Assembly: GCA_965207065.1 (NCBI GenBank)
Contig: OZ242260.1
Coordinates: 1,888,001-1,952,000, forward strand
DNA from: a bacterium
GTDB lineage: Bacteria; UBA8248
Direction of reading: 5' to 3'
Length of the DNA: 64,000 bases
In this document: positions 49,801 to 63,553 of the stretch, one piece after another
How positions within the stretch are numbered: position 1 is the stretch's first letter
Layout of the letters: every line of letters begins with the position of its first letter
Program-made: the position numbers and the translations under genes
Notes under the pieces: model-generated
Databases searched by the model: none
Seen by the model: the letters and a program-made list of their open reading frames with translations, nothing else
What the model was told of the DNA's origin: nothing

Positions 49801-50754
49801 ATGACCGCTACACACGACCACAAGGAGAGCACCATGTTCGAGAACGATCACAACGATGCCCAGCATGAATCCTTCACCGCCATGGTCTGCGAGCAGGCCG
49901 CCCTGTTCGGCGCGACTCCCGGGCCGGATGAGTTCGACAACCGCCCCGTGTGGGACGAAGCAGAGGCGACCGCCGCCGTCATCAGGGCCTTCGGCGCACT
50001 CGCGGAAGCCGCACCCGACGGAACGCAACTCGCGGATGAGCGAAGAAACCTTCTCTGGGGCTTCGTCAACACCCTGAACGCCCAGGTACAGCGCCTCGAC
50101 CGCGCCGCCGACAAGCTCATCCCCGGGGTCCGTGAACTGCAGCGCGAGCAGGACGGCTCCGAGATCCGCTCCCGCGAACTCGAACTCATGACCGACCGCG
50201 CACAGAACCTGAATGACCGGCGCGATGCGTTCGAGGGGCTGCGCGACACGGCCGCAGAGGCCTACCGCATCGAGACCGGCGAGGTATGGCGGCCGAGGCG
50301 AGGATCACACGTCAGCCAGACCGGCAAGCTCACATCGGCGGTGATCGAGGCGCGCGACTTCCAGCGAGCCAGAAAAGACCGCGCGAGCACGGCCCATCTT
50401 CCCCAGGGAACGCTCGTCGCCGTCGCGGGTGGCAAGGAGGCGAACGATGCGGGCAAAATCATCGCACATCTCGACCGCCTCAAGGCCAAGTACGCCGACG
50501 TCGTCCTCGTCCACGGCGGCGGCCCGGGCGCCGAGAAAATCGCGGCGGGATGGGCCGAGCGCAACGGCGTCCACCAGGTCGTCTGCAAGCCCGACTGGGA
50601 CGCGCACGGTCGGGCCGCTCCCTTCAGGCGCAACGACGAGCTGTTAAACCTACTGCCCAAGGGCGTGATCGCGTTCCCGGGCAGCGGCATCACCGACAAC
50701 CTCGTCGACAAAGCTAAAACCCTCGGCATACCCGTGCAACGCGTGGCCGCTTGA
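49801..50754 (+). CDS. DUF2493/SLOG (YspA-like) domain protein
   Basis: VAVAGGK, LVHGG.PGAEKIA..WA, PDW..HGRAAPFRRN, IAFPG.GIT.NL. Confidence 0.85.
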   Translation: MTATHDHKESTMFENDHNDAQHESFTAMVCEQAALFGATPGPDEFDNRPVWDEAEATAAVIRAFGALAEAAPDGTQLADERRNLLWGFVNTLNAQVQRLDRAADKLIPGVRELQREQDGSEIRSRELELMTDRAQNLNDRRDAFEGLRDTAAEAYRIETGEVWRPRRGSHVSQTGKLTSAVIEARDFQRARKDRASTAHLPQGTLVAVAGGKEANDAGKIIAHLDRLKAKYADVVLVHGGGPGAEKIAAGWAERNGVHQVVCKPDWDAHGRAAPFRRNDELLNLLPKGVIAFPGSGITDNLVDKAKTLGIPVQRVAA

Positions 50755-51946: not shown

Positions 51947-52450
51947 TCAGAGTCCCAAGTCCATCTCGATCCGCTTCCCGCGGCCGGGTTCGGGCGCCTT
52001 CGCGCGCGGCATTTCCCGTCCGTTTTTCATGCCCGGGGAAGAGGAATCGGCCAGCTCCCGCTCCGTAGTTTCGCGCTCGTGTAGCGCCTTCGCGTCGAGC
52101 CCGGGCTGCGGACGGACGGATTCATCGATGCCCTCGAGTGCCGAGATGCGCTCGCCGGTCACGGTTTCGAGCCGTTCCCTGAGCGCCTTCGCGTCGTCGG
52201 TGACGAGTTCGGCCCTGTCCCGGGCGCGCGATATCTCGACGTAAAACGCTTTCGCCGTGGTCAGTTGGGGGTGGTTCGCCTCCATCGCGGCGATGACGCC
52301 CTCGACCGTGCGCCCCTGAAAGGCGTGCACGGTCGAGGCCCAAGCGCGGTCGAGATGGCGCAGTTGCGGGTCGCCCTGGGTCAGTGTGAGCTTGCGGCCT
52401 TCCTCGAGGGTGAACATCACCCGTCCGTTCCGGACCCCCGAGACCTCCTC
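51947..52450 (-). pseudogene. C-terminal remnant of a conjugative relaxase-helicase (TrwC/TraI-like)
   Basis: HLDRAWASTVHAFQGRTV, FYVEISRARD helicase motifs; 5' part replaced by IS1380. Confidence 0.85.
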
Positions 52451-53521
52451 GGTGAGCAGAAGGGCACGGCCTATAACGGCCACTTCGGCTGCACCTGCTA
52501 TCACCCGCTGTTCGTGTTCAACCAGTTCGGCGACCTGGAGCGTTGCGCGCTGCGCCCCGGCAACGTGCACAGCGCCCACGGATGGCGTGATGTCCTGGTA
52601 CCGGTGGTCGAACGTTACAAGGGACGAGCCATCCGCCTCTACTTCCGCGGCGATGCGGCCTTCGCCTCACCGGAGATCTACGACTACCTCGAAGCAGAAA
52701 GCATGCTCTACGCCATCCGGCTGCCCGCCAACAAGGTGCTGCAAGAGAGCATCGCTCATCTCCTGAAACGCCACGTCGGCAGGCCGCCCAAGGACGTGCG
52801 CCGGTATCATGCCAGCTTCAGTTATCAGGCCGGAACCTGGGGCAAGCCCCGCCGCGTCGTCGCCAAGGTCGAGTGGCATCCGGGTGAGTTGTACCCGCGG
52901 GTTGGGTTCGTTGTCACCAACTTGGGCCGCCCCACCGAGCGGGTGGTTGCGTTCTACAATCAGCGCGGCACGGCTGAGCAATGGATCAAGGAGGGCAAGA
53001 ACGCGATCCGGTGGACACGCCTTTCGTGCCGCAAGTTCGACCACAATGCCGTTCGCCTCAAGCTTCACGGGCTTGTCTACAACCTCGGCAACTTCATGCG
53101 CACCCTCGCGCTGCCCGATGCCGTGGAACAGTGGTCACTGACCAGCCTGCGATAGAAGGTCATCAAGATCGGAGCGGAGATCGTGCGCCACGGGCGCTAC
53201 GTCACGTTCCAGATGGCCGAGGTTGTCGTTCCTCGTGACCTGTTCGCCGACATCCTGCGCCGTATCGACCGGCTCAGACCGCCGCCAGCCCCGGCATGAG
53301 CGATGGCATCCTGTTCCTTCGGGTCGCCGCCGACAAGATCGGTGCGCCTGGACCGGACCGGATCGCCGGCAAGAATGCCATTCCGGGCCACCAATGCCGC
53401 CACTTGGTGCCCAATCATCCGGATCGGCGCGAAGATGGTCGTCATTCGAAGGCGAATTGCACGTCGAGCGGTTTCGAGTCACACTCAATGGGCTGGGAGG
53501 GTTCCATATGGGGAATCCCGG
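52451..53521 (+). mobile_element. IS1380 family element, 5'-truncated; transposase remnant to 53299 with internal TAG at 53153
   Basis: AYNGHFGCTCYHPLF, LRPGNVHS, RGDAAF, FYNQRGTAEQWIKEGK; right end CATATGGGGAATCCCGG. Confidence 0.88.
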
Positions 53522-54543: not shown

Positions 54544-54829
54544 TCGGCTTGTCCGCGGCGACGGGGCATCCTGCGGGCAACCCGATGCCGAACCAGTACG
54601 TGGTTTACGACTGAAGGTCATTCTCACAGTTCCTTGCCGAATCGTTTGCCCTCCGCCGAAGGCGATCTCGTTGACAGTCAGCGCCTCGTCGACGGTCTCG
54701 TCGGAGGTCTGGTGCTCGTAATGGGAATACAGTGTTCACTTGATGATGGGTTCTCTACGCTTCGTGCAGCCCTCGTCTGTTGGGGGCTTGGAAACAGATC
54801 ACTGCCGTTTGCGTCAGGAGGTATTGAGG

Positions 54830-55096
54830 ATGAACAACCGCAATCTGGTTCTGTCGGCAACCGAATGTGCGTACACGCCAACGCATGCATTGCTCGCCAA
54901 GGAGTCCGATCCGGACGCGCAATTCTCGACGTCTATCACGGTGTCTAGTGGTCCTTACGAGCCGACGGCAGCTATGCTTGCGAAAGAATTGCGATTTCGG
55001 AAGCGTCACATGTATTCTGTCCTGAAAGCCAATGCCGAACATGATCGCACCCCGTATCTGCCATCCCGAGAGATGCTCGCAAAGGAGGTGCGCTGA
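54830..55096 (+). CDS. 88-aa peptide with three [AP]YxP[TS]xx[ML]LAKE repeats
   Basis: AGGAGG RBS; repeats conserved in amino acids but divergent at synonymous codon positions. Confidence 0.75.
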   Translation: MNNRNLVLSATECAYTPTHALLAKESDPDAQFSTSITVSSGPYEPTAAMLAKELRFRKRHMYSVLKANAEHDRTPYLPSREMLAKEVR

Positions 55097-55173
55097 GACC
55101 GGCGGCTTCAAGAGAGCCTATTATTCGATGCACGGACCAGGTGGCCGGTTGAGTGCCAATGAGGGGGTAACCG

Positions 55174-56249
55174 ATGTCGATACGTAAGAGCGTACGCAAT
55201 CTGAGTGATGCCGAGCAAGACGAATTCGTCAGCGCAGTTCTCGCTCTGAAGAACGAAACCAGCACGGTCATGCCGGGTTTCAATACCTACGACACCTACG
55301 TCGCGTGGCACGTGCGTGCAATGGCGAACTCGACGCCGTGGGCGAGTGACGACCCAAACGATCCATCCCCCACCAGTCGCAATTCAGCGCACCGCGGACC
55401 CGCGTTCTTGCCTTGGCATCGTGAGTTCCTGCGTCGGTTCGAGGCCGATCTTCAGCGTATCTCCGGCAATTCGGACTTAGCGATTCCATACTGGGACTGG
55501 GAGAACGACAGCACGTTTCCGGCATTCCTCGGTGGGGACGGAGCTCCGCTATTGGCTCCGATCGGCCAACAAAGCCTCAGAGCCTCGTACTGGTACGGGA
55601 TCAGGAACCCATCCGGTACGTCAGGACGTATTTGATGGCGGTCGCCGAGGGACCGTTTCGGGGATGGCTCGACGATCACGGAAGCCCTCTCGGATGGCTA
55701 GCCGTCGACGGGAACGGAGCGGCGGTTGGTCCGTTGCAACGCGCTTTCGGCACCCAGGAAGTTGCTAGGCGGGATCCGGTCACGCGGCTGCCGGTTCTTG
55801 ACCCTGCAACCGGCCAGGTGGCCATGGGACCCGTCATATTGCCTACGTCCCAGGACGTTCAGCATGCACTTGGAATCGCGGAATACGACGCTCCTCCATG
55901 GGATGAGGACGGAAGGTTAGAGAGCTTCCGCAACGTCTTGGAGGGTTGGTGGCGCGGGCCCCGTTTGCACAACCAAGTCCACGTTTGGGTAGGCGGCTCC
56001 ATGGGTCCCGGTACGTCGCCAAACGATCCAATTTTTTTCTTGCATCATTGCAACGTCGACAGGCTGTGGGCTGAGTGGCAAAGGATGCACCCCTCGGCCG
56101 ACTATCAACCGCAAAGCGGTGGTCCACCGGGGCACAACGTGGAAGACCTGATGTTCCCGTGGGACGGAGTCAAGACGCCCGATACTGTAAGACCGCGGGA
56201 CATGCTTGATCTTGGAGGCGTCGTCTATGAGCCGCCACTAAGCCGGTAG
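55174..56249 (+). pseudogene. Tyrosinase, split by one -1 frameshift between about 55540 and 55635 (real lesion or sequencing error)
   Basis: CuA region WH..AH.GPAFLPWHR and PYWDW in the first ORF; CuB region LHNQVH, TSPNDPIFFLHH.NVDRLW in the second. Confidence 0.88.
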
Positions 56250-56834
56250 TAGTCGAGCGCTCGATTTACGCCCCGTTACCATTGTCTGAGCAGTCGCGGC
56301 CAGCTTGATCCGACGCATTCGCCTTCACCGCATGAGCAAATGGGCCGGGTAGGCGGGGGCATTTCTGCGCCCCGCCTACCCGGCCAGCGAATGGATGTAA
56401 ACGTTTATCCAAGCCGTGACGAAGTGGGCTTCACCATGGACCGCAAGTGCTTGGATATTTTGCTGAATTAGATGGTGCCGAAAGCATTAGTGCTGACTAG
56501 TTAAGTACGGACTGACTTCGAACTACCGCTGCTGGGGTATTGCTATCACGGCTTAAGTGAACGTTTACGAATGGATACCGACATGAACGCTCTAGGATGC
56601 GCAGAAGTTTGAATTCGCCCGCTTTCGTTTTGTTTACATATATCAGAAACCGAACTCTGTACTAGGTTCCCAAAAACCCAATATCCACAAAAGTTTCAAC
56701 AGACTACAAAGACTTCACCCCCGTTGAAAACCCCCCACTGACTCTAAACGGGCGAAAAATACCTATAGGCCTCAATATTGACCCCATTCAGATTCCTACG
56801 CATCTGCAACGGTGTTTTTCTATTGTCTGGACAT

Positions 56835-57530
56835 TTAATCAGTTTTCAAGTGTTCTCGAATTTGAGAAATGAGCTTTTCCCCTATCCAAGGAGGTTCAGG
56901 CGGAGATTGATTTAATGTCTGTTTTAATTTTTCGAACTTGATTTGCACATTTTTTTTTCGAGTTCGACATCTGGGATTCTCATTTGTGTGATTGTTCTCG
57001 AAATGACCAATACAACGTAGAAATCCATCCATTTCATTACTCATTTTATTCCACAGATTACTGGAATCATTTCCAATATAGAACATGAGAAGAGAACCTA
57101 TGGAATTCTTGCGCGTATCCCATTCTTCCCATGTTTTGTTGAATGTGAGCCTTACTTGCTCTTTTTGTTTCTTCATTATTTCCTGATCTTCTTTATTTCG
57201 GGGCTTGGCAAATAAAGGCCCCTCGATATCAATCATACTTCCGGCTCTACTCATTACTTGCCCCACAAGGTGATAAGCTTCATTCGCTATTTTTTCCCGC
57301 CCACGGAGATTTATCTTGTGGAGTTCAAGCTGATATTGACTACTTAATTGTATTATTCCATTTCTAAGCTCACGATCCTGTTGCCATCCTTGGAAGATAT
57401 TTGTCAAGATTCCCGCCCCGATACTTCCGATTAGAACTGTTATCAGTGCAGCGCAGACTTTGGAATCCAGAATTGTGAGGAATGTTTTCATTTTATGGAT
57501 AGCCCCGGCTTTAGCATTCTTCTTCCACAT
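56835..57530 (-). CDS. Hypothetical protein (AT-rich, one N-terminal TM)
   Basis: Long ORF in low-GC DNA; start uncertain. Confidence 0.6.
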   Translation of the reverse strand: MWKKNAKAGAIHKMKTFLTILDSKVCAALITVLIGSIGAGILTNIFQGWQQDRELRNGIIQLSSQYQLELHKINLRGREKIANEAYHLVGQVMSRAGSMIDIEGPLFAKPRNKEDQEIMKKQKEQVRLTFNKTWEEWDTRKNSIGSLLMFYIGNDSSNLWNKMSNEMDGFLRCIGHFENNHTNENPRCRTRKKNVQIKFEKLKQTLNQSPPEPPWIGEKLISQIREHLKTD

Positions 57531-57712: not shown

Positions 57713-59098
57713 ATGAACTCCAAAGACCTCTCTGAACTGATTGCGCTTGGCGAAGGTTTCACGACCGAGTTCAAACGCGCCGAGACATCCAGCTTGGGAC
57801 GGGAAATCTGCGCTTTTGCAAATGCCACCGGTGGTGTGATTCTGATCGGTGTAGAAGATAGTGGGGAGATAGTGGGAGTCGCGGACCACAACGGCCTGAA
57901 GTCCAGGGTGCAAGCCACCGCCCGCTCAGCGGATCCACCGGTTGCCATCGACGTGACGTCAGTCGACAGTGTGCTCTGTGTCAGGGTCCCGGAGCAACAT
58001 GGCAAACCCTATTCTTTCGGTGGCAGGTTCTTTATGCGCGAAGGTGCAAACTCTCAACAGATGTCGCGGGAGGAGATTCGCGAGTTCTTCTTCAAGGAAG
58101 GCCTCATCAGATTCGATGAGATGCAGTGTGGTGTTTTCCGCATCGAGAACGATTTGACAGACGAGAAGTGGGCGAAGTTCTCTCAACGTGCGGGAATACC
58201 CGAAGGACTGGAGCCTATTGCGACGCTGGAGAACCTGCATTTGCTGAAAGCCGGAGAGATGACAAACGCCGGGGCATGGGTGCTTGCCGACGACATCACT
58301 CGCTACACCTTACAGGCCAAAGTGATATGTGCAGTCTTTCGAGGAGCAACAAAAACCCACATCCTTGACCGCAGGGAATTCGACGCCGATCTTTTTTCTA
58401 TCTTTGAGGATTGTATGACGTATCTGCAGTCCAGGCTGAACACGGCTTTGATACCCCATGCCCTGGGAAGGGATGAACGTCTGGAGCTTCCCGAAGGCGC
58501 CTTGAGGGAAGCGCTGGTCAACGCCATCGTTCATCGGGATTATCGTTCCACCGCGAACGTACAGGTTCATGTCTTCCGCGACCGTCTGGAGATCGTGACG
58601 CCGGGCGGATTGCCGGCCGGGATGCGTGAAGAGGATCTAGGGACGAAGAGCGTGCCCCGCAACCCACTCCTGTTCGGTATGTTCTACCGCATGGGTCTGG
58701 TCGAGCAGGTCGGTAGCGGCATACGACGCATTCGCGAATTGTGCCGCGACTACGGGGTAACCGAGCCGACAATCAACGTCTCCGAGAATTGGGTGACCAC
58801 TATATTCGTGCGTCAGGTCGAACATGCGGCCTCGCAAGTACCCGACAAGTTCCCTGCAAGTACCCTGCAAGTCAGAAATCTCATCCGTTCTCTGGATGGC
58901 GAACGGACACGAGCAGAAATCCTTCAGAGTCTGGGACTCAAGGATCGGACGAATCTGGCCAAGGAATATATACAACCGGCTCTTGCCGCAGGACTCATCG
59001 AGATGACCATCCCGGACAAGCCCCGAAGCAGCAAACAGAAATATCGATTGACGGACAAGGGACGGGAATTGCAGGAGCACATGAAGCAGACGCGATGA
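57713..59098 (+). CDS. Schlafen/AlbA_2 + HATPase_c_4 (RecG-C-like) + C-terminal HTH protein
   Basis: GEGFTTEFK, ICAFANATGGVILIGVED, REALVNAIVHRDY, PRNPLL, GSGI, TIPDKPRSSKQKYRLT. Confidence 0.88.
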   Translation: MNSKDLSELIALGEGFTTEFKRAETSSLGREICAFANATGGVILIGVEDSGEIVGVADHNGLKSRVQATARSADPPVAIDVTSVDSVLCVRVPEQHGKPYSFGGRFFMREGANSQQMSREEIREFFFKEGLIRFDEMQCGVFRIENDLTDEKWAKFSQRAGIPEGLEPIATLENLHLLKAGEMTNAGAWVLADDITRYTLQAKVICAVFRGATKTHILDRREFDADLFSIFEDCMTYLQSRLNTALIPHALGRDERLELPEGALREALVNAIVHRDYRSTANVQVHVFRDRLEIVTPGGLPAGMREEDLGTKSVPRNPLLFGMFYRMGLVEQVGSGIRRIRELCRDYGVTEPTINVSENWVTTIFVRQVEHAASQVPDKFPASTLQVRNLIRSLDGERTRAEILQSLGLKDRTNLAKEYIQPALAAGLIEMTIPDKPRSSKQKYRLTDKGRELQEHMKQTR

Positions 59099-62116: not shown

Positions 62117-63553
62117 TCAATTCCCTATAGTCAACCCCACGAGTCCATATGTTTGGATTCTGCCAGTGTCGTGGCAATAGTAGGCTTGAAACAATTCGAA
62201 GTCACTCCGGTGGTTCTCATCGCATTTCTTGGAGATTATCTCGATAATTTTCAGCTTTTCGCTATCCGGCGTGCGGATTCCAAAAATAATACCCTTCAAT
62301 AAACTGAAATCGTAAGTCAGGGCACGAGAATTCTTGTCGAGATCACCTGACAAGCCATGTAGTACCAAGCGAGTTTCTTTCTCGTATTTCCAGTCGAGAG
62401 TTTTTATGGATAAAGCCGGGTAAAAACGATCCCAGTAGGCCTGTCTCCAGGCCTCGGTATCGATTCCAAAGTGAGATGCGCATTCACTCAAGTTTCCATC
62501 CTCATCGCTGTACCAGATTTCTATAAGCTTTATCTCAGGAAACATACCAAGGGAGCGAAAAAAATCGATTTCACCGGCTTTCTCTCCATATTTCACGTCG
62601 TGAAATTCCATCCGGCGAGGTCCCCATGTTTTCCCATGATTCGAATAACCCGTAACTTTGTTCAATGTCAGGCTGTTTACTCCATCTTGTGTATCCGATT
62701 CAAAAATCAAGCATACTCCTTTGTGGCCATCGCCATAATTCGCCCACATCGAAGCATTACCATAGTCTCTAGTAAAACAAGCGGCATACCAGCTTGGATA
62801 AAGCACTCGTTCAAGTTGTTGCAAATATGATTTTGGGAAATCAAAAATCAAAAATGTTAGATTACTTTCAAGATTGCTGCCAGGATTTTCCCTGCGCAGA
62901 TATTTATACTTGAGATGTATATCTTGCCACGTGCTTGAACCAATTCTCATCATATAATCAACAAATCCTTCTTCTTCGAATTGTGGCAACAGATCGAGAA
63001 TCTTGTGAAAATGTTCGAAGCTATCTGGGAACTTGCTCCATATCTCGTTACTAGATTCCAATTCGTAATCGACATATGTGTCTTGAATTTCCCTTAATGC
63101 AAGGTGGTGCAATCCCTGAAGATAAAAAAGAATCTCGTCGTGGCGGACTATTCGTTCTGCATTTACGAGTTTTTCAATAAATTTATGCAGTTTCGCTTTG
63201 TCGAATACTCTTCCATAGATATCCTCTATCAATCCACGTAACCGAGGTGCCGGGTCTTGGTCTTGGTCCGACATGACAGGAATGAGCTGAGGCCCAATTC
63301 GTTGACTGTCTCCAAGAAAACGCACAATCACGCACGTCATGTGTAAACAATAAAGGTAGTGGCGAAAAAAATTAGCCCAGACGATGTGATCACCTTTCCA
63401 AAAAATGTCTCGGAATCCTTCCATCGGGTCGTTGAGTTCTTGCGAATTGGCAAAGTAAATTGTCTGTCTCTCAAGCTCTTCGCAATCTGCACATTCTTTG
63501 AGCAATCTTTCTGTAGTCCTGAATCTGTACAATTCCGTCATTGTCAGTCTCAT
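62117..63553 (-). CDS. DUF2971 domain protein
   Basis: LYRFR, IYFA...LNDPMEG, CFT..Y.NASMWANYGDGHKGVCLIF, K..DWKYEKE.R, IIFG. Confidence 0.85.
   Translation of the reverse strand: MRLTMTELYRFRTTERLLKECADCEELERQTIYFANSQELNDPMEGFRDIFWKGDHIVWANFFRHYLYCLHMTCVIVRFLGDSQRIGPQLIPVMSDQDQDPAPRLRGLIEDIYGRVFDKAKLHKFIEKLVNAERIVRHDEILFYLQGLHHLALREIQDTYVDYELESSNEIWSKFPDSFEHFHKILDLLPQFEEEGFVDYMMRIGSSTWQDIHLKYKYLRRENPGSNLESNLTFLIFDFPKSYLQQLERVLYPSWYAACFTRDYGNASMWANYGDGHKGVCLIFESDTQDGVNSLTLNKVTGYSNHGKTWGPRRMEFHDVKYGEKAGEIDFFRSLGMFPEIKLIEIWYSDEDGNLSECASHFGIDTEAWRQAYWDRFYPALSIKTLDWKYEKETRLVLHGLSGDLDKNSRALTYDFSLLKGIIFGIRTPDSEKLKIIEIISKKCDENHRSDFELFQAYYCHDTGRIQTYGLVGLTIGN

Follow-up and report, generated by a model that had tools for sequence, protein, structure and literature searches.

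A triple-repeat tyrosine peptide encoded directly upstream of a bacterial tyrosinase: a possible repeat-type replacement of the caddie protein

The peptide gene and the tyrosinase gene

The window analysed here is a stretch of 64,000 nucleotides (nt) of a bacterial genome (lineage UBA8248; contig OZ242260.1, positions 1,888,001 to 1,952,000), and the subject of this study is a pair of adjacent genes within it: a small gene that encodes a peptide of 88 amino acids (aa) with three tyrosine-containing repeat units, and a tyrosinase gene directly downstream. Based on a model of the complex and on the analogy with the caddie protein of Streptomyces tyrosinases, the peptide would be, with a probability that we put at about 55%, a repeat-type replacement of a caddie, i.e. 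a dedicated partner of the enzyme which may act as a plug, a latency factor and a first substrate.

The peptide gene (P0001; 54830..55096, plus strand) starts with the ATG at 54830 and its stop codon ends at 55096. A Shine-Dalgarno sequence, AGGAGG, can be read at 54816..54821 on the same strand, 8 nt ahead of the ATG. In locus L003, which comes from a metagenome-assembled genome of Alphaproteobacteria and is the closest locus for which DNA is available, a GAGGAG is found at a similar distance from the peptide gene. The repeat units, all on the plus strand, are AYTPTHALLAKE (aa 14-25, 54869..54904), PYEPTAAMLAKE (aa 42-53, 54953..54988) and PYLPSREMLAKE (aa 75-86, 55052..55087); in the complex model described below, it is the L003 counterpart of the third unit that lies at the active site. 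An initial annotation, made from the letters of the window, had reported an 88-aa open reading frame (ORF) with a strong ribosome-binding site and three such units, and all of the positions agree exactly.

Six columns are identical across the three 12-residue units, compared with a maximum of three in shuffled peptides (0/300 reach six). Compared in pairs, the units share 3-7 of the 12 third codon positions and 21-24 of the 36 nucleotides. Since so few silent positions are shared, the repeat is old and maintained at the protein level. The numbers of non-synonymous (dN) and synonymous (dS) substitutions per site were estimated by the Nei-Gojobori method between the window and L003. For the repeat units they are 0.18 and 1.48 (dN/dS ~0.12), and for the spacers of the peptide 0.88 and 1.31; the tyrosinase has a dN of 0.14-0.22 and a dS of 1.75 in its N-terminal half, which is not computable in the C-terminal half, i.e. 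it is saturated or nearly so. In this comparison the repeat units are constrained as strongly as the enzyme, and the spacers drift almost freely. The codons quoted in the initial annotation are right, and its preference for selection on the peptide over a recent duplication of the DNA agrees with the few shared third positions. Judged from these sequences, the peptide gene is real and its repeat motif is under selection.

Between the two genes there is an intergenic spacer of 77 nt (55097..55173, plus strand). A weak stem-loop lies within it at 55104-55118, and the tyrosinase ATG is preceded by a ribosome-binding site, GAGGGGG. That ATG is located at 55174, so that the enzyme does start 77 nt downstream on the same strand, as had been annotated. 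Terminator-like matches at the locus are at chance level (two found, 2.0 expected from shuffles), and a scan of the locus for sigma-70 promoters returned no sites. A 118-aa ORF on the opposite strand (54755-55111, minus strand) covers the entire peptide gene; only fragments of 56-67 aa are kept in L003, and in all likelihood this antisense ORF is an artefact that arises from the high GC content.

The tyrosinase of the window is encoded in two frames. The first (55174..55635, plus strand; PF00264, E 1.1e-17) contains the half with the CuA site, whose histidine ligands lie in WHVRAM and AHRGPAFLPWHREF, and its stop follows the change of frame. The second (55632..56249, plus strand; PF00264, E 3.6e-23) contains an insertion specific to this clade of tyrosinases and the CuB half, with LHNQVHVW and FFLHHCN. 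A comparison of the frames with those of the tyrosinase P0036 places the frame-change site within 55562..55580 (plus strand), near 55569, where the window has one base fewer than its relatives. A 1692-nt contig from the runs X1/X2 (one sample, from which the assembly may derive) shows no differences and no gaps against the window over 54681-56300, and a 936-nt contig from X4 (a separate study) differs at 73 positions over 54848-55782 and has one extra C behind 55569; the window is therefore one base short of this relative. All six copper-ligand histidines are still encoded, and they match the invariant columns H46, H73, H82, H243, H247 and H269 of a tyrosinase alignment of 48 rows. With the L003 orthologue as the query, the nearest solved structures are the tyrosinases of Bacillus megaterium (E ~1e-60) and Streptomyces (1WX2_A, 8e-46).

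Programmed frameshifting was considered for the window tyrosinase and rejected, as no slippery heptamer was seen by eye at 55562-55580 and the relative has one more base. Damage is also seen in two close relatives of the enzyme: in P0036 the frame shifts ahead of CuB, and P0029 is cut short, with unrelated sequence after PPWDEDG. This suggests either repeated inactivation of this tyrosinase or indel errors in the source assemblies. Because its tyrosinase is frameshifted, the pair is probably inactive or decaying in the genome of the window.

The broken tyrosinase next to it is one of the features which could indicate that the peptide ORF is itself not functional, i.e. that it arose by chance or is decaying, within a mosaic region; the others are the GC content of the neighbourhood, which varies from 0.40 to 0.69, and the presence of transposase and helicase fragments in the region. 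We regard this as extremely improbable. The low dN/dS of the repeats was obtained across a pair with saturated synonymous sites, 12 homologues have the same layout of repeat units, the start is preceded by a strong ribosome-binding site, none of the 300 shuffles reproduces the repeat, and the overlapping antisense ORF is not kept in L003.

Peptide family, linkage to tyrosinases and genomic setting

The family was searched for in two protein sets, one of 5.8 billion clustered sequences and one of 1.84 billion cluster representatives, which gave 12 members of 74-109 aa (P0001-4, P0006-9, P0011, P0012, P0134 and P0135). Every one of the 12 contains two or three units, which gives 34 units in total. 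The first half of the consensus over these units is P (25), Y (33; H in one), any residue, P (32) and T (21) or S (11), and the second half is any residue, A (18), M (23), L (29), A (24), K (31) and E (31). The single unit with His in place of Tyr belongs to P0011. The conserved Met lies six residues past the Tyr (23/34 units), and a Cys is found two residues ahead of the Tyr in 5/34. Three longer proteins of 775-1483 aa (P0005, P0010 and P0013) were rejected by eye as relatives; they are unrelated repeat proteins for which many weak stretches had been summed.

Neither Pfam nor NCBIfam has a family for the peptide of the window or that of L003 (E up to 1). Scans of genome, metagenome and viral contigs with the peptide pattern gave no relative, no plasmid was matched by tblastn with the peptide, and the ESM Atlas gave no usable match. 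A full-text literature search, which covered few subscription journals, did not return any report of such a peptide or of a bacterial repeat precursor linked to a tyrosinase. On the basis of these searches, the peptide family is rare.

Direct adjacency in DNA is found at two loci. In the window the gap is 77 nt on the same strand; in L003 the 94-aa peptide P0008 is followed, after 62 nt, by an intact tyrosinase of 334 aa, which is 79% identical to the N-terminal half of the window enzyme. The 936-nt contig of X4 also bridges both genes, and its differences from the window reproduce the substitutions V38G, Y62H, K66E and R73L of P0002 (derived by hand). Indirect evidence comes from contigs of equal size, which pair P0003 with the tyrosinase P0036 (10297 nt) and P0009 with P0023 (2067 nt). 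This matching used the best 120 of 717 tyrosinase matches, and the tyrosinase of L003 is not among them; a missing match is uninformative here. The contigs of P0011, P0012 and P0135 (686-1241 nt) are too short to show linkage. On a second contig of X4 (6106 nt), matches to the peptide gene's end and to the tyrosinase's start are separated by 189 other letters, compared with 193 in the window, which is a weak hint of another peptide-tyrosinase pair.

In all, a tyrosinase could be assigned to 5/12 members, and none of those that could be checked contradicts the linkage. A search for homologues of the repeat and for their adjacency to tyrosinase genes had been proposed in the initial annotation, and a homologue without the enzyme, which was named there as contrary evidence, did not appear. 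A hidden Markov model (HMM) of the unit and one of the family were also run on 95 other tyrosinase loci (80 genomic and 15 metagenomic), and only L003 was matched. The 15 metagenomic loci were obtained with the L003 tyrosinase and contain distant enzymes, with 25-48% identity in the best segment; none of them has the peptide. From these data, the peptide gene appears to be linked to one narrow clade of tyrosinases.

Concerning its distribution across taxa, the peptide is absent from the 50 other genomes of the window's class (1/51 has it; 1/44 in the order) and from the 48 other genomes of the order of L003 (1/49 has it). The L003 genome lies outside the window's class. The window pair is flanked by a 318-aa ORF of unknown function, a DDE transposase fragment, a 231-aa ORF of unknown function and an AlbA_2/HATPase_c_4 protein; the L003 pair is flanked by a RhuM/Fic-like gene, an HU-like gene and integrases, as read from the ORF translations without a family scan. 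Only the peptide-tyrosinase pair is common to the two neighbourhoods. The pair occurs sporadically in unrelated hosts and apparently moves as a two-gene unit, to judge from its distribution.

This setting bears on the possibility that the peptide acts on some other protein of the host or of a mobile element through linear motifs, the tyrosinase being a mere neighbouring cargo. Only five of the 12 members are tied to a tyrosinase, the locus lies amid unrelated accessory genes, and the peptide ORF is intact although the tyrosinase of the window is broken, all of which would fit such a target. It nevertheless seems quite improbable: no tyrosinase-free member was found wherever linkage could be checked, the window and L003 have only these two genes in common, spaced alike (77 and 62 nt), hosts of different classes have kept the two together, and the predicted complex of peptide and enzyme passes its controls (0.67 vs 0.04).

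At the upstream edge of the two-gene cassette there is a multi-copy segment (54657..54720, no strand assigned), which was recognised by read depth and loose contig ends. In run X1 the depth is 228 in the bin 54657-54713 and 17 over the cassette, and many contigs have loose ends at 54667-54720. The segment probably forms the border of a repeated element, or else it is a conserved fragment of a minus-strand gene. Further features of the region are a YAcAr/SLOG-domain protein (49801-50754), the DDE transposase fragment (52265-53155), a nearby UvrD_C fragment, the 231-aa ORF, which has a low GC content (56835-57530, minus strand), an AlbA_2 (Schlafen)-HATPase_c_4-Fic-like_C protein (57713-59098) and a DUF2971 protein (62117-63553, minus strand). 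With its GC mosaic, the neighbourhood looks like an accessory or defence-type island. A complete ribosomal RNA (rRNA) operon (16S, two tRNAs, 23S and 5S) is present at 26131-31628 of the window, ~23 kb upstream of the cassette.

Predicted complex of the peptide and the enzyme

The modelling of the peptide with its tyrosinase, suggested in the initial annotation as a way to see whether a tyrosine reaches the dicopper site, was carried out on the intact L003 pair, with the 48-row tyrosinase alignment and a peptide alignment of 10 rows. The interface score (ipSAE) was 0.70, 0.64 and 0.67 (median 0.67), and the best of three controls scored 0.04. The score mark used is reached by 58/80 solved complexes and 2/110 mismatched pairs, and these counts are only approximate here, as the alignments were made for this study. 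At least 40% of the contacts are common to the runs, and the predicted local distance difference test score (pLDDT) of the partner is at least 41.

On the peptide side, the predicted interface consists of L003 residues 74-80, 82-88 and 90-91, i.e. of unit 3. Tyrosine Y77 of the L003 peptide is predicted to touch H247 and G255 of the enzyme. The histidines H243, H247 and H269 are invariant, and their spacing is like that of the Streptomyces CuB ligands His190, His194 and His216; the model places the tyrosine at the dicopper site, as the initial annotation had envisaged. Seven of the 25 enzyme residues of the predicted interface (171, 173, 174, 182, 183, 185 and 192) belong to an insertion of 22-24 residues. 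This insertion is present in 18/48 aligned tyrosinases, which are the rows with at least 45% BLASTP identity except P0035 (45%), and is absent from the other 30. The window tyrosinase also carries it. Overall, the model supports binding of the peptide to the tyrosinase.

A tyrosine in the active site is also what would be expected if the peptide were a dedicated substrate, or a multi-core precursor resembling the ribosomally synthesised peptides with post-translational modifications (RiPPs), in which case the modified peptide, with dihydroxyphenylalanine (DOPA) or quinone and possibly with crosslinked or cleaved units, would be the end product. Such a role would suit the three conserved units with their nearly invariant Tyr (33/34), the poorly conserved spacers, which are like the linkers of multi-core precursors, and the tight linkage of the gene to a tyrosinase; fungal repeat precursors with a tyrosinase are also known, according to PMC7329392. 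We nevertheless consider it rather unlikely. No protease, transporter, signal peptide or second tailoring enzyme is common to the window and L003 loci, and inspection of the family alignment shows no conserved leader and no conserved dibasic or other cleavage site flanking the units. One unit has His for Tyr (P0011), and both proteins are apparently cytoplasmic, based on inspection of their N-termini. Also, the conserved 12-residue unit includes a helix that is predicted to touch the clade-specific surface, and in this it resembles a docking motif rather than a core. Finally, the same operon slot holds caddie homologues at other tyrosinase loci.

The initial annotation had left three roles side by side: substrate, RiPP-like precursor, and new inhibitor or chaperone. 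As a disjunction this is supported by the linkage and the complex model, with the helper or inhibitor favoured, and with the RiPP as the weakest of the three since no protease, transporter or tailoring gene is shared. Were the peptide nonetheless the product, which is doubtful, bacteria would for the first time have an equivalent of the repeat RiPPs linked to a tyrosinase in fungi, here with two genes only and with recognition through a motif and a helix on the insertion. Similarly novel would be a variant in which a single disordered peptide tethers and gates three tyrosinase molecules at once.

Caddies, mini-caddies and other known systems

Small ORFs immediately ahead of the tyrosinase gene are seen at many of the other loci, and a small MelC1-like ORF is present directly upstream of the tyrosinase in 17/80 genomic loci. 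Eight of these 17, together with two true MelC1 sequences (from L090 and L091), were used to build an HMM; the Streptomyces/Kitasatospora loci L071 and L081 were discarded as a source of MelC1, because they contain tyrosinase fusion genes without an upstream MelC1. The proteins, here called mini-caddies, have 69-115 aa and are found at L006:4739-4948, L007:870-1088, L008:491-724, L009:4733-4963, L010:81-329, L012:4632-4979, L021:3521-3967 and L026:4647-4943, as well as at nine further loci; among their hosts are Cyanobacteria, Chloroflexi, Proteobacteria, a haloarchaeon and Nitrososphaerales. The eight ORFs can be aligned among themselves, and their alignment to MelC1 is weak. That of L026 matches Pfam MelC1 with E 4.5e-5 and 23.9 bits, under the 27-bit cut-off. 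A profile of the upstream ORFs finds PDB entry 2JV8 ("uncharacterized protein NE1242") with E 8e-8 and the Streptomyces caddie over its full length with E ~1-2. The caddie fold consists of a six-stranded sheet and a C-terminal helix. An AlphaFold2 (AF2) model of one mini-caddie (pLDDT 76.8) has six strands and a helix, and a structure search with this model returns caddie chains in each of the first 21 PDB rows (probability 1.00, template modelling score by target 0.66-0.78, E 0.005-0.2). The full-text literature searched, which lacks most subscription journals, contains no paper on NE1242, NE1241 or 2JV8.

Based on these sequence and model comparisons, signal-less mini-caddies appear to be common tyrosinase partners. 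The clade of the window tyrosinase has no mini-caddie, and it is the repeat peptide that occupies this slot. A distinct small ORF is conserved at L004:4746-4994 and L005:2617-2850 (82 and 77 aa), where it stops 6 nt before the tyrosinase start. The hosts are Rhodobacteraceae, and their tyrosinases are 49-55% identical to the N-terminal half of the window enzyme. The ORF contains no tyrosine, has the common C-terminus LP[KR]GV[LF][IL]ELQQ..EHE and matches nothing in Pfam or NCBIfam; it may represent a third kind of tyrosinase partner.

To our knowledge, the structural understanding of latency and copper loading in bacterial tyrosinases is based on only one helper, the Streptomyces caddie. MelC1 is required for folding, copper insertion and export by the twin-arginine translocation (Tat) pathway, as stated in part of PMC8375020, and passages of PMC6312201 describe that Tyr98 of the caddie stacks on His194 and that it is oxidised by the enzyme to dopaquinone, which releases the enzyme. 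If the repeat peptide does take the caddie's place, the downstream tyrosinase would have a cytoplasmic partner that is disordered and signal-less. Each unit would comprise PYxP[TS] in extended form and, behind it, a short helix (xxMLAKEL), and would dock on a surface built partly from the insertion found only in this clade. Docking would bring the unit's tyrosine into the dicopper pocket and up to the second of the CuB histidines, like Tyr98 of the caddie. By analogy, the cytoplasmic enzyme would be kept latent or stabilised during copper acquisition, and the plugged tyrosine would be the first substrate, whose oxidation to DOPA or quinone frees the enzyme; this last part is proposed because oxidation of Tyr98 releases the Streptomyces enzyme. 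The three units might provide avidity, serve three enzymes per peptide or act as three successive "fuses". We infer the latency or chaperone function, the oxidation of the tyrosine and any role of the three units.

Several observations weigh against this proposal. The first group concerns the caddie itself. The window peptide does not match MelC1 PF06236 or NCBIfam NF047833. An alignment of the 34 units with the caddie profile by hhalign covers 10 columns and is not significant (P 0.059, probability 0.9%). The AF2 monomer of P0008, built on the 10-row alignment, has a pLDDT of 62.7 and a predicted template modelling score of 0.20, with three helices, no sheet and no caddie fold. The N-terminus of the window peptide (MNNRNLVLSATECAY) has, by inspection, neither an RR motif nor a hydrophobic stretch, i.e. 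no Tat signal; by contrast, MelC1 of L090 carries TRRRMLQGSGVALTAAVGAGAL at its N-terminus. Also, His82, Met84 and His97, through which the caddie transfers copper, have no evident counterparts in the peptide; the conserved Met and the occasional Cys near the Tyr of the units are weak hints of copper delivery.

The second group concerns the other lines of evidence. A docked tyrosine would fit a pure substrate equally, and the model does not separate a helper from a substrate. Solved tyrosinase-caddie complexes exist (1WX2 and others), and memory of them may be behind part of the score. The partner's own fold is uncertain in the complex (pLDDT below 50). The linkage count leaves out P0004, P0006, P0007 and P0134. 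Lastly, the broken tyrosinases of the window, P0036 and P0029 could mean that the system is dispensable.

The peptide was not assigned to the MelC1 family, on the grounds of the missing profile match, the hhalign result and the missing caddie fold; a search of the window's genome with PF06236 also gave no match. The initial annotation saw neither a Tat signal nor a resemblance to MelC1. Inspection bears it out on the first, and Pfam, NCBIfam and hhalign bear it out on the second at the level of the family, but it does not hold at the level of the motif, where the unit is like the Tyr98 loop and its helix, nor for the operon slot, which is shared with MelC1-like genes.

If the peptide does replace a caddie, the plug, and not the folded domain of the caddie, would be the minimal functional part. 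Short encoded peptides that bind the active site of tyrosinases would then be available, with possible use as inhibitors, activity switches or site-specific DOPA tags, and the pair would offer a simple two-gene system in which to ask whether the tyrosine of a helper is a placeholder, a timer or a product. The mini-caddies are relevant to the many bacterial and archaeal tyrosinases that express poorly, and they correspond to the unexplained PDB entry 2JV8.

Among the known systems, one of the closest is melC of Streptomyces (MelC1 PF06236, 1WX2 chain B; MelC2). Both have a small co-oriented gene just upstream of a signal-less tyrosinase. The caddie segment S96-H97-Y98-D-P-V-P-T-P-R-AAARAAVDEL can be set beside the unit P-Y-E-P-T-AAMLAKEL: both show Y-x-P and a Thr and then a helix, and in the monomer model of P0008 the three helices (20-36, 48-58 and 81-90) each start just behind a PYxP[TS]. 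The predicted place of the repeat tyrosine is at the second histidine of CuB, on which Tyr98 of the caddie stacks. They differ in that the peptide of the window has three tandem plug units and the caddie only one, and in that the peptide is predicted to dock partly on the clade-specific insertion of its enzyme. The mini-caddies have the same operon position as the repeat peptide, a similar size and an apparently cytoplasmic location. Their C-terminal motif PY..Y.S...LA..VID resembles the repeat unit, and MAFFT sets the mini-caddie PY on Y98 of the caddie. However, they have a caddie fold and a single copy of the motif, and the two HMMs do not recognise each other's proteins: that of the mini-caddies misses the window peptide, and that of the repeat misses the mini-caddies.

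The ustiloxin pathway of fungi comprises a repeat precursor and the tyrosinase UstQ. The window system resembles such ustiloxin/dikaritin RiPPs in having a ribosomal peptide with tandem Tyr units that is clustered with a tyrosinase, but it is bacterial and consists of two genes only, whose products both look cytoplasmic, and its locus has no signal peptide, conserved dibasic sites, DUF3328-type oxidases, protease or transporter. Latent tyrosinases can have lid or placeholder domains; in that of Verrucomicrobium spinosum, a C-terminal extension blocks the active site with a placeholder residue. This extension is an inactivation domain, as described in PMC10526336, and it is similar to what is proposed for the window peptide in that a polypeptide element keeps the enzyme inactive. 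It belongs, however, to the enzyme's own chain and proteolysis removes it, whereas the window peptide would be a separate gene product with three interchangeable units. In the pair described here, the key element of the caddie, a tyrosine plug with a helix, seems to stand alone, in three copies within a disordered protein, and to have its match in the clade-specific insertion of the enzyme.

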